Shown piece by piece: positions 5,951 to 64,000 of a stretch of 64,000 bases of DNA (the stretch's first letter is position 1; every line of letters begins with the position of its first letter). Below the pieces are notes generated by a model. The model ran no database searches, was not told the origin of the DNA, and was given only the letters and a program-made list of their open reading frames with translations. Source of the stretch: an uncultured Candidatus Cloacimonadota bacterium. Lineage in GTDB: Bacteria > Cloacimonadota > Cloacimonadia > JGIOTU-2. The position numbers and the translations under genes are program-made. Where the stretch lies: NCBI GenBank assembly GCA_964398885.1, contig CAYNOU010000005.1, positions 301 through 64,300 of the forward strand. Reading direction: 5' to 3'.

Positions 5951-7082
5951 TACTAAAAATCTCTTTTTTTACTTCTTTATCAATAGCCAAAATTGTTTTT
6001 AAGTCTGGATTTAAGATATTTTCCGACTTAGATATGTAGTTATCTACAATTTTATAAATATCAATAAATTTAATTTTCTCATTTAAAAACAACGAAACCG
6101 CAGCTTCATTGGCAGCATTAAAGACGGTTGGCATAATCCCACCAGTTTTTCCAACCCAATAAGCAATTTTTATTAAAGGGAATTTTTGGTAATTAACTTC
6201 TTGAAAAGTCAGATTTGGTAAAGTTGCGATGTCAGTAAATTTCGCTGCTGTGGAAATTCTTTCTGGATATGAAAAGGCAAATTGGATTGGAATTTTCATA
6301 TCCGGATAGCTGAGTTGAGCCAGGATAGAACCATCTATGAATTCTACTAATGAATGAATAATAGATTGAGGATGAATTACCACCTCAATCTGTGCATATT
6401 TCAAACCAAAGAGGTGATGAGCTTCAATAACCTCCAAACCCTTATTAGCCATTGTTGCAGAATCAACTGTAATTTTATTTCCCATTTTCCATGTAGGATG
6501 CTGAAGGGTATCTTTAATTGTAATTTTATTAAAATTTTTCAACTCCCAATTATTGAATGGACCTCCTGATGCTGTAAGGATTATTTTTCTTACCTGGGAT
6601 GACAGAGAATTTCCAAGCAAACACTGCATAATGGCACTATGCTCACTGTCTACCGGAATTAAGTTGCAATTATTCTCTTGAACAATTTTCATTATGATAT
6701 CGCCAGCCATTACCAATGATTCTTTATTTGCCAGTGCAATATCGTGTCCACTCTGCAGTCCCGCAACCGTATATTTAAGGCCAGCCGAACCAACCACTGC
6801 ATTTAGCAAAATATCATAATCCAGTCTATTCAAAATCTCCAATAATTCATTTTCCCCAAAATAGATCCTTTTATCTGTGTTTATTTTTGACTTTACGCCT
6901 TCATTTGTAATTATTAAATTTGGAATTTTTAATTGTTCTGCATACTTTAATAAATTTTTGTAGTCATTATGAGCAGTTGCCAACACAATCTGAAACCTGT
7001 CTGAATGCCTTTTGACAACTTCTATGGTTGACCTGCCGATTGAGCCTGTTGCTCCTAAAAGTGCGATTTTCTTTCGTGACAT
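5928..7082 (-). CDS. dxr: 1-deoxy-D-xylulose 5-phosphate reductoisomerase
   Basis: 384 aa; N-terminal NADPH site LLGATGSIGRSTIEV; Dxr core conserved throughout. Confidence 0.9.
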   Translation of the reverse strand: MSRKKIALLGATGSIGRSTIEVVKRHSDRFQIVLATAHNDYKNLLKYAEQLKIPNLIITNEGVKSKINTDKRIYFGENELLEILNRLDYDILLNAVVGSAGLKYTVAGLQSGHDIALANKESLVMAGDIIMKIVQENNCNLIPVDSEHSAIMQCLLGNSLSSQVRKIILTASGGPFNNWELKNFNKITIKDTLQHPTWKMGNKITVDSATMANKGLEVIEAHHLFGLKYAQIEVVIHPQSIIHSLVEFIDGSILAQLSYPDMKIPIQFAFSYPERISTAAKFTDIATLPNLTFQEVNYQKFPLIKIAYWVGKTGGIMPTVFNAANEAAVSLFLNEKIKFIDIYKIVDNYISKSENILNPDLKTILAIDKEVKKEIFSKSVHPVK

Positions 7083-7328: not shown

Positions 7329-8147
7329 TTACCTGATAAAACTAAAATAGAAGTACAAAAACGGTGCACTTATCATCAAACTATCAAATCTATCTAAGAT
7401 TCCACCGTGTCCAGGAAGTAGTTTAGAGGTGTCTTTTACCTGAAAATCCCTTTTTAGATTGGACTCCATTAAGTCACCAAGTTGTCCTATAATACCGACT
7501 ATTATTCCACATGCGATTATATCTTTACAGTTGGGAAGAAGGCGAAAGTTCCAGATAGCACTTATGAGTAAATTCAGCATAAAAGCAAATACAAAAGCCG
7601 AAATTATCCCGGCTATAAATCCTTCAGCAGATTTTTCTCTACTTGCTTTAAAAATATTGCGATGGCTGCCAAACTTTTCACCAATAAAATAGGCAGCTGT
7701 ATCAGTTATCCAGACTAAAACCATTAGGAATATTAAGAGTATATTTCCATACTTTAAGGTACTAATAAGGAACAAAAATTCTAAAAGCAAGGGGATATAC
7801 AACAATGCAAAGATAGTGTATGAAACTTTTTCTGTTGATTGTTTAATATTATTTGAGAAGACATCATAAGTAATGATTAAAATGAAGGTTAAAATATACA
7901 CGAATATGAGATTATTCAATCCAATAAAAAAGATATACCAGTTTATAAAAAGTGATACGACTATAATAATAGGAAGATTTATTTGAATTTTTTTCTTTTG
8001 TTTAGCAAGCACACAAAATTCTCTTACACCCAGAATAGAAATTATACTAATAAGGATTTGAAGATAAATGCCGCCGAACCAGGCGCATATTAATAAGACA
8101 GGTCCAAAACAAAAGGCACATAAAGTTCTTATAGCAATGGGTCTCAT
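7329..8147 (-). CDS. cdsA: Phosphatidate cytidylyltransferase
   Basis: 272 aa polytopic membrane protein; C-terminal signature GHGGILDRFDS. Confidence 0.85.
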   Translation of the reverse strand: MRPIAIRTLCAFCFGPVLLICAWFGGIYLQILISIISILGVREFCVLAKQKKKIQINLPIIIVVSLFINWYIFFIGLNNLIFVYILTFILIITYDVFSNNIKQSTEKVSYTIFALLYIPLLLEFLFLISTLKYGNILLIFLMVLVWITDTAAYFIGEKFGSHRNIFKASREKSAEGFIAGIISAFVFAFMLNLLISAIWNFRLLPNCKDIIACGIIVGIIGQLGDLMESNLKRDFQVKDTSKLLPGHGGILDRFDSLMISAPFLYFYFSFIR

Positions 8148-30829: not shown

Positions 30830-31789
30830 TTATTTATAGATATAGTATTGAAGGTCTATTTCTTCCATTTCATTTCTTGAAATTTGTGACAGTTGATACA
30901 TCAATTCTTTTAGAGAAGATTCATAAGTGTTATAAGTTGAAAGATTTTTGAAAGAAGGAAATGAGATTTTTTGCTTTGTTGCAATTATTATTAGTGTTTC
31001 TGAATCCTCATTTTTCTCTGGAAGCAATCCAACTGGCAAAGAAAATGCATCTTTCTCATCAGGAAATTTAAAAACTTCGTTTGCTTGAACAAAATTGTTT
31101 TCTCTATATTCGTTTGGAAAAAGCATTCCCACAGACTCGTTAGAGTAAAGGCAAAATATAGATAAATAACAATCTTTGGTTGGTAGAATTGAAATTTCAA
31201 GTTCTTCACCTTCCTTAAAATATTCCTTATTAAGTTCAGCCTTCAAATTAAAGTAAGGGTCTCTTTCACCTTTTTGCTTACCGACTTTTACTTTCAAAGT
31301 AACTATTTTTTTAAAGATATTTCCATAGGTTGCTACCCTTTCGTTTAGGATTTCTTTTTCTAATATTTTTGCTTCGCTGCTTAGGTTTACCAGCTGAGAA
31401 AAATGATCAATTAGGATTTTGTTATTGCTTTCAGAAGTAATTTTGAGGGTTGTTGCGTTAACCATTACACCACTGTAATATTCAATTACTCTTTTGCAAG
31501 CATTTTGTACTGCAAGTTCCCTTGCTTGCTCTGGAGTAATATTTTCTATAACAGCAGAACCAGTTACCTCAAACCAGTCATTGCTCAAATCTTTAATCTC
31601 TTGTTCGTCTGTTTGATAAATTGTCTTAACTTTATGTGGTTGGTCTGGAATGATAGTTTTGTTTTGAGAACATGTTAGTATAAAAAAAGTTATAAGTAAT
31701 AAAACTAAAATATGTTTCATAATATCCTTCTTAATATTTGTAGCACAATCGCCTCGATTGTGAGGTGTGAATTCCGACTTTGTTTTCAA
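30830..31789 (-). CDS. Putative lipoprotein of unknown function
   Basis: Internal Met gives the signal peptide MKHILVLLLITFFILTCSQ with a lipobox; LPP20-like N-terminal region. Confidence 0.4.
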   Translation of the reverse strand: MKTKSEFTPHNRGDCATNIKKDIMKHILVLLLITFFILTCSQNKTIIPDQPHKVKTIYQTDEQEIKDLSNDWFEVTGSAVIENITPEQARELAVQNACKRVIEYYSGVMVNATTLKITSESNNKILIDHFSQLVNLSSEAKILEKEILNERVATYGNIFKKIVTLKVKVGKQKGERDPYFNLKAELNKEYFKEGEELEISILPTKDCYLSIFCLYSNESVGMLFPNEYRENNFVQANEVFKFPDEKDAFSLPVGLLPEKNEDSETLIIIATKQKISFPSFKNLSTYNTYESSLKELMYQLSQISRNEMEEIDLQYYIYK

Positions 31790-31870
31790 TTTTTTCGCGA
31801 TAAAACGGACACTTGCGTTACAAGTTGATTAATACTCCACAATAATTTTATCCGAATCACCAATTACCTG

Positions 31871-31912
31871 TCATACCTCATTACCAAGCCCCAGCTTGGT
31901 AATGTAATGTTA
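31871..31912. repeat. 42-bp palindromic repeat (CCAAGCCCCAGCTTGG family), copy 1
   Basis: TCATACCTCATTACCAAGCCCCAGCTTGGTAATGTAATGTTA. Confidence 0.7.
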
Positions 31913-32076
31913 TTGCGTTCCCAAGCAAGGGCCTGGGAACGAGAGGAAAAATTCGATAAACTCAATTTATAACTTAAGTCAAGTTTCGCTCTGCTCAACT
32001 TAACTCAAGTTCTTCAATACCTCCACCACAACCTTATCCACATCACCAATTACTTGCGGTGTCTGCTCACGGTTGT

Positions 32077-32301
32077 TCAACCTTCTTGCCATATAAGGAA
32101 CATTGTCATCAATATAATTTTCTCATACCTCATTACCAAGCCCCAGCTTGGTAATGTAATGTTAAGATTATTTTCTAAATCAAATTCAAGTTCTGCTACT
32201 TCGTTCTTGGATCTTTTTGATCTTCTTGCCTGATAGAATGATATTAATAGATTATCCCAAACATATATCTTTGAATACAAATATCCTATTCTCTTTGGCA
32301 T
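32077..32301 (-). pseudogene. DGR reverse transcriptase truncated to its first ~50 aa by insertion of the palindromic repeat
   Basis: WDNLLISFYQARRSKRSKNEVAELEFDLENNL matches the DGR RT N-terminus (as in Bordetella phage Brt WENLLDAYRKTSHGKRRTWGYLEFKEYDLANLL); the ORF then runs into the repeat TLPSWGLVM and stops. Confidence 0.7.
32122..32163. repeat. 42-bp palindromic repeat, copy 2 (identical to 31871..31912)
   Basis: Exact second copy 255 bp from the first, inside the RT remnant. Confidence 0.7.
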
Positions 32302-32304
32302 AGT

Positions 32305-32601
32305 TCATTTTGTTTTTAGTGATTCTTTATACCAACCACCAGTCTGTCTTCCTATTTCATTTATAGACTTTGCTAAATATTCATAATGTTTAATCGTAAT
32401 TAAATTTACTTCTTTACATAATCTCACATAATATCGTAGAATTTCCAAATCTATATTCGCTTTTATTAGAAGTTGAGTTTTTTTCTTTGAAAAGCGTGTA
32501 TTAATATACTTCTCCATTAAATCATAAAGATGATTTTCTATCCTTGTTCTTAAGGTATATCTGTAATTCCTGGGAAACTTAGAAATCTTTGTAAAAACCA
32601 T
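32305..32601 (-). CDS. avd: DGR accessory variability determinant (Avd), four-helix-bundle family
   Basis: 98 aa; KFPRNYRYTLRTRIENHLYDL...IDLEILRYYVRLCKEV...INEIGRQTGGWYK (Avd-like GGW end); sits between an FGE-domain gene and the RT remnant in the classic DGR order. Confidence 0.7.
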   Translation of the reverse strand: MVFTKISKFPRNYRYTLRTRIENHLYDLMEKYINTRFSKKKTQLLIKANIDLEILRYYVRLCKEVNLITIKHYEYLAKSINEIGRQTGGWYKESLKTK

Positions 32602-32757
32602 TTTATCAAATCATATAAATCTATAAGGGCCTTAACTTCTTTTATATTGTTCATTATCTAAACCTTCACAAGTGAGGTCACTTGTTTTACAAAAATTTTT
32701 CGACCCCGACTTTGTCGGGTTAAAAGGGTAAAAGAATAAAAGGGAAAAGAGTTACAA

Positions 32758-33786
32758 CTATTTTGTCCTGCAAAAACGAGAACCATAATCGTAGTCGCAG
32801 AAACCTAGAATGCCGTAACCGCGCCCAGCACAACGACAGTAGCTGCCGTAGCTGCTCCAAGAACCGCCACGCAAAATGCGATATGTTCCACTTTTAGGAC
32901 CCTTAGGATTATTCTTTGGACTATTTGAATAATAATTCTCATCATACCAATCCCAGCACCACTCCCACACATTGCCACTCATATCATAGATACCAAGCTC
33001 ATTGGGCTGTTTCTTTCCTACTGGATGGGTTTTGCTCCCTGAATTTTTTGAATACCAGGCAACTTCATTAATATTGTTGCTGCCGGAGCCGGAGTATTTA
33101 TACGAACCAGAGGTTCGTGCTACTGCTGCATATTCCCATTCTGCTTCTGTAGGTAATCTGTAGCCATTTGCAGAAAAATCGCATTTTGTGTTTTTGCCAC
33201 TGCCACTGTAACAAGTCATTAAACCTTCCTGTCTGCTTTTTTTATTGCAGAATTCAACTGCATCATACCAACTTACTTGTTCAACTGGTAAATTATCTCC
33301 TTTGAAATATGAAGGATTATTGCCCATTACTTCTTTCCATTGTTTTTGGGTTACTTCATATTTCCCAATATAAAAATCACCAACCCTTACTGTATGGACT
33401 GGTTTTTCATCACTATCTCCACTTGTGCTTCCCATCTGGAAGGAACCACCTTTTACAAATACCATACCCCTTGGTACAACATTTACTTTGAAATTAACAG
33501 TCCAACCCTTTAAGCTTCTTCCTTCAAGGACAGGTTCCCAGCATATTTCGTGATTTTTCCCTGGTTTTACATCATTCAAATCTCCAGCAATAACTTCTGG
33601 CTTTATTTCGGTTCCATCTTTATTGGTTGCTGAAGGAACAATATTGTAAGTGTCATTTCCGGAAAGGTCGTAAGTAATAACAATTCTGCCGTTTTCTATT
33701 TTTTGTTGTATATTGGAAATTGGTTGGGAGAAGAGGGTTGATGTAAAAATAATAAATAAAAAGCAATATAAAATAACTTTTTTCAT
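32758..33786 (-). CDS. DGR target protein: secreted FGE-sulfatase (DUF323/CLec-fold) domain protein with a C-terminal variable region
   Basis: Signal peptide; FGE-domain motifs VSWYDAVEFCN, RLPTEAEWEYAA, GNVWEWCWD, RILRGGSW; the C-terminal 30 codons are dominated by NNC codons (AGC, TAC, GGC, TGC, GAC, TTC). Confidence 0.75.
   Translation of the reverse strand: MKKVILYCFLFIIFTSTLFSQPISNIQQKIENGRIVITYDLSGNDTYNIVPSATNKDGTEIKPEVIAGDLNDVKPGKNHEICWEPVLEGRSLKGWTVNFKVNVVPRGMVFVKGGSFQMGSTSGDSDEKPVHTVRVGDFYIGKYEVTQKQWKEVMGNNPSYFKGDNLPVEQVSWYDAVEFCNKKSRQEGLMTCYSGSGKNTKCDFSANGYRLPTEAEWEYAAVARTSGSYKYSGSGSNNINEVAWYSKNSGSKTHPVGKKQPNELGIYDMSGNVWEWCWDWYDENYYSNSPKNNPKGPKSGTYRILRGGSWSSYGSYCRCAGRGYGILGFCDYDYGSRFCRTK
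32761..32880 (-). other. Putative DGR variable region (VR) at the 3-prime end of the target gene
   Basis: Codons agc agc tac ggc agc tac tgt cgt tgt gct ggg cgc ggt tac ggc ... ttc tgc gac tac gat tat ggt tct cgt ttt tgc are consistent with diversification of template AAC codons. Confidence 0.5.
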
Positions 33787-42477: not shown

Positions 42478-42754
42478 ATTTTTATAAATCTGCTTGTCAC
42501 AAAATAGCTTATATTTGTAAGAGAATAAGTATTTAAGTCATTTTGTTCTTTTCTTGAAAAAGGCCTATCCTGTTTGTGATAACAATGTTGTTTTGTGCTA
42601 AACTTGAACTATAGGGTGTTCGATTAGGTATGGCGTGAATGCCTTCATTGCAGTTGGACTCATAAAATATCTATAAGGATTCCCATTATTGAGATACAGT
42701 TCAAACAAATTGTTACACGGCAAGGACAGGTCTTTTTTATTGAAAGGATGAAAA

Positions 42755-63459: not shown

Positions 63460-63743
63460 TTTTCCTCATTTATGATTATTTCTGTTTTAGGTTCTTTTGA
63501 TTCTGTAAGCCATTTAAACAATTTATCTGGACCTCCGCTTGAAAAAAATTTCACAAGCAAGATAACAATGATTAAGATAATAATCCTGAGCAATAATTTC
63601 CAGAAAGAAGACAGTTCTTTATTTCGTCTTTCTCTCCTTCTTTTCCACTCGTCGCCAAATTCTGAATGTTTCATATGAAAATCTCTTTCACCACAAAGGT
63701 CACAAAGAGCACAAAGAAAATAAATATACACTCTCATTCCCAA
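63456..63743 (-). CDS. Hypothetical small membrane protein whose 5-prime end overlaps the tandem repeat array
   Basis: 95 aa; the start region is encoded by the repeat unit (HMKHS); C-terminal TM. Confidence 0.25.
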   Translation of the reverse strand: MGMRVYIYFLCALCDLCGERDFHMKHSEFGDEWKRRRERRNKELSSFWKLLLRIIILIIVILLVKFFSSGGPDKLFKWLTESKEPKTEIIINEEK

Positions 63744-64000
63744 GCCCCAGCTTGGGAATGCTTACATGTCATTTTCATACTCCTTTGCCTGCCCCGTTAA
63801 ATTTCTTTCTATTTAATGAGGTGTCCCGATTTGTTTTCGGGACATGTAGGTTTCATATGAAAATCGTTGTTAATATTATATGGAGTAGTTCCGATATATC
63901 GGAACTGAATTCGGCAAGAGACTTGCCGACCCCAAATCAAATATAATTTTTATTCTCCTTTGCGTCCCCGAGGCATCGGGAACATGAATGTTTCATATGA
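63660..64000. repeat. Tandem array (at least 3 units, truncated by the window end) of ~140-180-bp degenerate repeats, each ending in TTTCATATGA and containing GC-rich hairpins
   Basis: GAATGTTTCATATGAAAATC at 63664-63683, GTTTCATATGAAAATC at 63846, GAATGTTTCATATGA at 63986; internal hairpins CCCAAGCCCCAGCTTGGG, GTCCCGATTTGTTTTCGGGAC, GTTCCGATATATCGGAAC, GTCCCCGAGGCATCGGGAAC. Confidence 0.5.

Follow-up and report, generated by a model that had tools for sequence, protein, structure and literature searches.

Background

Among the described cassette architectures of diversity-generating retroelements (DGRs), the one designated B2 has the order avd-RT-TR, with the gene for the accessory protein Avd, the reverse transcriptase (RT) gene and the template repeat (TR) (Wu et al. 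2018, PMC5758913). Sensor domains of the FGE/CLec type have also been described in DGR targets of caspase- or peptidase-linked 'conflict systems' (bioRxiv 10.1101/2023.09.22.558884), and orthocaspases are known that carry DUF4384 or FGE-sulfatase accessory domains (PMC7475262). Here we analyse a 64-kb stretch of DNA (contig CAYNOU010000005.1) from an uncultured Candidatus Cloacimonadota bacterium, referred to as the window throughout, which carries on its minus strand, in this order, a gene resembling a DGR target, a broken avd and the stub of an RT gene. We find that the locus is very probably a wrecked chromosomal DGR that had the form target-avd-RT-TR and was lost by a deletion of about 3.3 kb together with a frameshift in avd, which left the variable repeat (VR) of the target frozen. 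A pseudogenised DGR of this sort is nothing out of the ordinary, and the locus is a well-resolved new example.

Cassettes of the B2 type with a CLec/FGE-sulfatase target upstream are represented here by loci L015, L021, L171/L172 and L175 (L numbers denote fetched stretches). The window locus agrees with them in the order and orientation of its genes, in having an Avd that belongs to the DivGenRetAVD family, in the N-terminus of its RT, in an FGE-sulfatase/CLec domain whose 3' end carries a VR starting from RGGSW, and in a pyrimidine-rich stretch after the VR; unlike them, it has an RT of 46 codons, a missing TR and a frameshifted Avd, and is without retrohoming. The prototype DGR is that of the Bordetella phage BPP-1, with the target Mtd, bAvd and bRT. 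Like BPP-1, the window has a CLec-fold target with a C-terminal VR, an Avd and an RT, but it is chromosomal and non-functional, its target is of the FGE-sulfatase type, and its ancestral-type TR would have lain downstream rather than upstream of the RT. The combination of a CLec/FGE sensor, a caspase-like protease and DUF4384 recalls the conflict systems and orthocaspases, from which the locus differs in that the three are separate genes, that there is no STAND NTPase, and that the caspase partner appears to have been destroyed along with the diversifier.

Results

The target gene and its variable repeat

Profile and homology searches confirm the target, the Avd and the RT start in the canonical DGR order that the original prediction, made from the bare sequence, had proposed for three minus-strand genes, and the three open reading frames (ORFs) lie where it had placed them. 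The first is an intact target gene of 342 aa (32758..33786, minus strand), correctly recognised at the outset as an FGE-sulfatase/CLec protein (Pfam PF03781, E 5e-53), in which an N-terminal hydrophobic signal-like segment and an N-terminal domain of about 90 aa precede the FGE-sulfatase/CLec domain. Over its full length it is 55% identical to the target of the intact DGR in L171.

The composition of the gene changes abruptly near its end. Adenine makes up 13.8% of the 29 codons after RGGSW and 35.5% of the rest of the gene, G+C 53% and 37% respectively, and NNC and NNY codons account for 14/29 and 27/29, compared with 17% and 54% of the other 310 codons; equally A-poor 87-nt windows number 48 among the 63,914 on the minus strand. 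The anomaly is real and sharply local. The footprint claimed for the C-terminus is therefore borne out in its poverty in adenine and its NNY pattern, though the codons are not 'almost all NNC' as had been stated. By the same measure the VRs of five loci with a verified TR have an A content of 0.14-0.20 and an NNC fraction of 0.46-0.61, while seven FGE homologues whose fetched loci contain neither RT nor TR and whose composition is unlike that of a VR, which are likely non-DGR targets, have values of 0.31-0.42 and 0.04-0.14. The bias is thus not a general property of the FGE domain, a possibility that the original prediction had itself named as a check.

The fossil VR (32765..32877, minus strand) runs from CATTTTGCGTGGCGGTTCTTGG to TTTTGCAGGAC, with variable codons at 32770-32856, and aligns with the VRs of L015 and L021, the match to the VRs of relatives extending from CATTTTGCGTGGCGGTTCTTGG up to the ...AGGAC end, a motif common to them. 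Judged from the sequence, its place at the C-terminus of a CLec/FGE-sulfatase domain is what a remnant DGR would be expected to show. The region after the VR (32705..32752, minus strand) consists of a pyrimidine-rich motif (32721-32752) and a small hairpin (32705-32719). Repeats of the CTTTTMC type in the former (e.g. CTTTTACCCTTTT) are shared, by alignment, with L015 5915-5960 and L021 ~1430-1460, and the motif may be a cis element or simply the upstream region of avd. The hairpin, CCCGAC-AAA-GTCGGG with a weak stem of 6 bp, lies 41 nt past the target stop (-6.1 kcal/mol, z = -2.2); the role of the whole post-VR region as a DGR cis element is purely putative.

A frameshifted avd

The 98-aa ORF at 32305-32601 had been described as an Avd-like gene, and its family is confirmed (NCBIfam DivGenRetAVD, the equivalog NF033474, 92.3 bits with a cutoff of 80; Pfam bAvd, E 3e-21), but it is not an intact gene, being only the downstream frame of a frameshifted avd whose true start is the ATG at 32654. 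The resulting pseudogene (32305..32654, minus strand) reads MNNIKEVKALIDLYDLIKWFL in a first frame (A) from that ATG and then TKISKFPRNYRYTL in the -1 frame (B), which stays open as far as the stop at 32305; near 32591-32592 a Pro codon has lost one C (TTA-CCA-AAG has become TTA-CAA-AG). Across the break relatives read WFLPKISKFPRNYRY, the gene being uninterrupted there, and the three closest Avd proteins have ...W(F/L)(L/E)PKI(S/A)(K/V)F(P/S)RNYRY...; as an independent check, tblastn with the Avd of L171 matches the window in two different frames. The lesion is present in all assemblies. Contig ends near the Avd start, considered as possible signs of a coexisting variant, belong to four low-coverage contigs of 1.3-2 kb, and nothing supports such a variant. 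An Avd accessory gene, here carrying a 1-nt deletion, is again in keeping with a remnant DGR.

Conceivably only the RT and TR were lost, with Avd still produced, either at full length through -1 ribosomal slippage at TGG-TTT-TTA or as a functional 98-aa product shortened at its N-terminus. That the break falls within a T-rich run (GGTTTTTAC) and that frame B is open for 98 codons would suit this idea, which we nonetheless consider very improbable: the site departs from the canonical X XXY YYZ heptamer, the gene of the relatives is uninterrupted, and Avd would have no selectable role with neither RT nor TR.

The reverse transcriptase stub and the missing template repeat

What is left of the RT gene is a stub of codons 1-46 (32164..32301, minus strand), which forms the beginning of a 74-aa ORF (32077-32301) that reads on through a 42-nt palindromic repeat to 32077; the RT homology ends exactly where the repeat starts (32164). 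Because a word-indexed protein search with the 50-aa stub returned only the stub itself and searches of PDB and NCBIfam returned no match, it was identified by way of RTs that adjoin Avd homologues, its residues 1-46 being 57% identical to the RT of L015 (6388-7467, E 4e-15) and 63% identical to that of L021 (1926-3020, E 3e-19). They also align end to end, at 52-70% identity, with residues 1-46 of 23 further full-length DGR-type RTs, whose clade includes several sequences from metagenome-assembled genomes (MAGs) of Cloacimonadota, and the N-terminus proposed to be an RT start is accordingly one. A tblastn search of phages with the stub gave weak matches, 11 of 14 of them within annotated reverse transcriptase genes. 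The database searches suggested for the two fragments have thereby led to an equivalog-level assignment for Avd and an assignment through neighbouring genes for the RT.

The window lacks both a complete DGR-clade RT gene and a TR/VR pair differing at TR adenines. Searches by tblastn with two full RTs found no further RT segment in its 64 kb, and an A-tolerant scan of both strands recovered only the VR itself and no TR partner, in agreement with the earlier failure to see a TR by eye. In six relatives (L015 and L021, found by the Avd search; L097, L111 and L134, relatives of the target; and L171) the RT stop is immediately followed by the TR, whose mismatches to the VR over 80 nt fall at 11-17 adenines and 0-1 other bases (13 vs 0 in L015 and 16 vs 1 in L021; one codon indel is needed in L171). 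Since the TR normally follows the RT directly, in the order avd-RT-TR, that of the window would have lain inside the deleted segment, which is why none is found.

The probable deletion junction

An intact Cloacimonadota DGR, found through an RT homologue (L171 2560-5376 and L172 123-4851), has the layout target-avd-RT-TR-Peptidase_C14-DUF4384, with the TR inside a 103-aa ORF, and the locus in the window probably descends from this layout. Its RT stub is followed by copy A of the 42-nt repeat (32123..32164, minus strand, as are all features of this section), with the core CATTACCAAGCTGGGGCTTGGTAATG at 32131-32156, and then, directly, by the last ~35 codons and stop of a caspase (Peptidase_C14) gene (fragment A, 32000..32122). 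Its frame, ENYIDDNVPYMARRLNNREQTPQVIGDVDKVVVEVLKNLS*, is 75% identical to the last 32 aa of the 750-aa Peptidase_C14 protein of L091 (E 4e-10) and also matches the C-termini of the caspases beside target homologues in L093, L112 and L172; caspase genes adjoin target homologues in L091, L093, L112 and L120. The repeat, first read as inserted where the RT ORF terminates, is not a simple truncating insertion; it would mark a deletion of ~3.3 kb.

Beyond fragment A there follow hairpin X, whose 15-bp stem straddles the fragment's stop codon (31971..32011, -8.4 kcal/mol, z = -5.2), and hairpin Y, GTTCCCAGGC-CCTT-GCTTGGGAAC (31917..31940, -10.8 kcal/mol, z = -6.1), a diverged member of the palindrome family that forms an inverted doublet with copy B of the 42-nt repeat (31871..31912). 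A second caspase 3' fragment, QVIGDSDKIIVEY (fragment B, 31829..31870), holds the last 13 codons and stop, with 11/13 residues equal to the end of the L091 caspase, and next to it is a DUF4384 gene (30830..31789, Pfam PF14326, E 8e-16), a conserved downstream partner that occupies the same position in L091 and L172. The two repeat copies are identical (42/42) while the two caspase tails share 81% nucleotide identity, so that the repeats are younger than their surroundings or homogenised relative to them.

We propose that one deletion, of ~3.3 kb on the scale of L172, would have taken away the RT gene from codon 47 onwards, the TR and some 95% of the caspase gene. Its most likely route would be recombination between two direct copies of the palindrome, one in the RT gene and one near the caspase 3' end, and the single complete repeat at the junction is the expected product of such an exchange. 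The same type of event has apparently occurred between the two copies now present, as L009 (Logan, SRR9700624) has a single 42-nt copy (2302-2343), the 252 bp from one copy start to the other being absent. Also in favour of this route we cite the complete identity of the two present copies beside diverged caspase tails, and L091, the locus with the closest target homologue (61% identical) and with avd and RT absent, where direct repeats of 141 nt (2295-2435 and 7459-7599), 97% identical and made of palindrome-family arrays, bracket a caspase-target-DUF4384 module, and where a decayed palindrome copy (6174-6232) lies between the target and DUF4384. The DUF4384 reading frame of L091 contains an in-frame stop.

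The deletion might instead have been independent of the palindrome, through illegitimate recombination, hairpin-provoked breakage, a later landing of the palindrome or a one-ended adjacent deletion. A pre-deletion state was not found, the family has no linked transposase, and the flanks of the 42-nt unit, TAACATTA and GGTATGA, are common only to the two local copies, one of which is possibly a local duplicate; against these stand the presence of exactly one complete copy at the junction, the product in L009 and the arrays of L091, and we consider an independent deletion unlikely, though a serious possibility. That the truncation of the RT is an assembly artefact, mimicked by a chimeric join at a repeated 42-mer, is scarcely conceivable. 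Assemblers do struggle in such places, contigs L008 and L004 both ending inside the 42-nt repeats, yet the join of RT stub, repeat and caspase tail recurs in independent JGI assemblies from at least 5 samples as well as in the NCBI MAG, and the Avd frameshift is independent of any repeat.

The palindrome family

Repetitive extragenic palindromes (REPs) and their inverted doublets (REPINs) are mobilised by RAYT transposases, and classical REPs are species-specific. The core of the 42-nt unit is a perfect palindrome of 26 nt with an 11-bp stem (as a DNA hairpin -11.7 kcal/mol, z = -6.2; hairpins of the palindromes range from -11.7 to -12.6 kcal/mol). Exact copies of the 26-nt core CATTMCCAAGCTGGGGCTTGGKAATG are present in 67 stretches from about 25 GTDB species representatives, belonging to Cloacimonadota, Marinisomatota, Ignavibacteria/Bacteroidota and one Brocadiaceae MAG, with no more than ~9 stretches per genome. 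Its A/C and T/G variants are paired in 70/72 copies, 65/69 copies fall outside any ORF of 120 aa or more, and many pair with a related hairpin as inverted doublets or have half-site arrays after them. The Ignavibacteria copies are embedded in a unit of ~120 nt with 16-nt terminal inverted repeats, which are also found in Bacteroidota copies and were not seen around the window copies.

The palindromes are short, multi-copy and extragenic, as REPs and REPINs are, and resemble them further in being GC-rich, perfect and mostly intergenic, in forming doublets and arrays, and in standing at rearrangement junctions; unlike them, they have an identical core across several phyla and no linked RAYT, and the Ignavibacteria unit is more like a miniature inverted-repeat transposable element (MITE) than a REP. 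The palindrome thus behaves like a REP/REPIN or MITE family of unusual cross-phylum conservation. Neither a transposase nor a recurrent neighbour gene family was found among 407 ORFs around its copies, and no RAYT was flanked by the same palindromes. Rfam gave no relevant match at E <= 5 for 31700-32900 or at E <= 0.1 for nine palindrome loci, the sequence appeared in no relevant paper of the literature searched, and no copy was found on the viral contigs of IMG/VR.

Two other readings of the palindrome were rejected. In attC sites the stem is built from R''/R' elements, and the GTT...AAC stem order here is the opposite of that arrangement. As for a CRISPR, the window has two copies 252 nt apart, and the 'spacers' of the array in L083 are near-identical. 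We put forward as a tentative suggestion that CATTMCCAAGCTGGGGCTTGGKAATG(AG), of 26-28 nt, may be the core of an undescribed mobile REPIN-like or MITE-like family, kept near-unchanged in Cloacimonadota, Marinisomatota and Ignavibacteria/Bacteroidota, which would remodel genomes and would here have deleted a DGR engine and its caspase partner, fixing a hypervariable sensor.

A Y1_Tnp gene (PF01797, 5852-6298) stands directly after the TR of another intact DGR, in L175 (5250-6700), with arrays of other hairpin repeats (e.g. CCTATGCGTGAACGCATAGG and CGCCCCGCCAAAGGCGGG) on either side, and resembles a RAYT with its REPs. The core CATTMCCAAGCTGGGGCTTGGKAATG is also present at 63735-63760 of the window (minus strand). 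In the stretch 63500-64000 (minus strand) five short, mutually unrelated hairpins are clustered, and three are preceded by the identical string 'gattttcatATGAAAC', which resembles a ribosome-binding site with a start codon and whose final copy is apparently the true start of the downstream gene; the same layout is seen in other Cloacimonadota MAGs (L032, L048 and L088).

Invariance and setting of the locus

The locus is accompanied by the housekeeping genes IF3, L35, L20, PheST and LpxB, neighbours that mark it as chromosomal with no obvious prophage. A 6S RNA is found at 42559-42736 of the window (plus strand; Rfam RF00013, 72.7 bits, E 2e-12). The identical sequence is also present as JGI 3300031586 contig Ga0315541_1000161, and a 2.2-kb region is 100% identical, at the level of consensus sequences rather than reads, across 13 fetched stretches (about a dozen contigs from several samples, in JGI and Logan assemblies), the sole mismatch being a contig end within copy B of the repeat. 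The check for strain variation that the original prediction had asked for therefore turned up none in the VR (13/13 identical). Samples holding the contig comprise JGI 3300031586, 3300031651, 3300031654, 3300031624, 3300031650 and 3300031365 as well as SRR9705735, SRR9700624, SRR9700625 and SRR9707989, and the MAG is the assembly that contains protein MEA3475301.1. The target gene is identical in 11 contigs, and its 90%-identity protein cluster, in a collection of 15 billion proteins, has a single member. Ongoing diversification of the VR is thus not seen in these consensus sequences.

Discussion

With the RT and TR gone and Avd broken, mutagenic retrohoming is impossible locally and the VR appears fixed; it would now be evolving as an ordinary coding sequence in which the last state reached has been kept. 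The proposal that the element is inactivated and its VR frozen is upheld by the absence of the RT body and the TR from the window and by the invariance of the locus in every assembly that carries it. The target, we infer, was once diversified in its C-terminal CLec/FGE domain, as a secreted protein alongside a caspase-like protease and a DUF4384 protein.

A cassette that is dead locally could still have its target diversified in trans by a second, intact DGR with a matching TR. Remote targets of DGRs are known (Wu et al. 2018, PMC5758913) and the RT clade is common in Cloacimonadota, but neither the VR nor the target protein differs between any of the assemblies, with no variant in the 90% cluster, and none of ten related NCBI RT clusters (0/10) contains an RT with an accession in the range of the MAG. 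A TR-tolerant IUPAC pattern, which allows at each position the VR base or A and which does match the window, had no match in IMG/VR. Diversification in trans is, in our judgement, improbable.

Several points weigh against the interpretation as a whole. The 64 kb seen are the visible part of the genome, and an RT/TR pair elsewhere in it could serve the VR in trans; in the metagenome_contigs collection the TR-tolerant pattern returned nothing, not even the VR itself, a result that is void and uninformative for that reason, the collection evidently being without these samples. All the contigs seem to come from one study, and the whole 2.2 kb is clonal. The caspase and DUF4384 proteins of L172 are too diverged from those of the window to show orthology directly. 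The single-copy variant in L009 may represent a polymorphism in the population or a collapse in assembly at a 42-nt repeat. The recombination route is inferred, no genome having been found with both of the pre-deletion palindrome insertions.

Conclusions

Surveys of DGRs curate functional cassettes, and the death of a DGR is rarely documented. The loci compared here form a natural series in three steps, from the intact cassette of L171/L172, through the window, where the engine has been deleted and stubs are left, to L091, where no trace of avd or RT persists, and from it one sees that a CLec sensor once subject to diversification can be retained as an ordinary gene after the diversifier is lost. 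The palindrome at the junction points to a repeat family that possibly spans phyla, and is a more open matter than the DGR itself. Orphan FGE/CLec proteins with A-poor, VR-like C-termini may likewise be fossils of DGR activity, which calls for caution both in annotation and in estimates of how active DGRs are.

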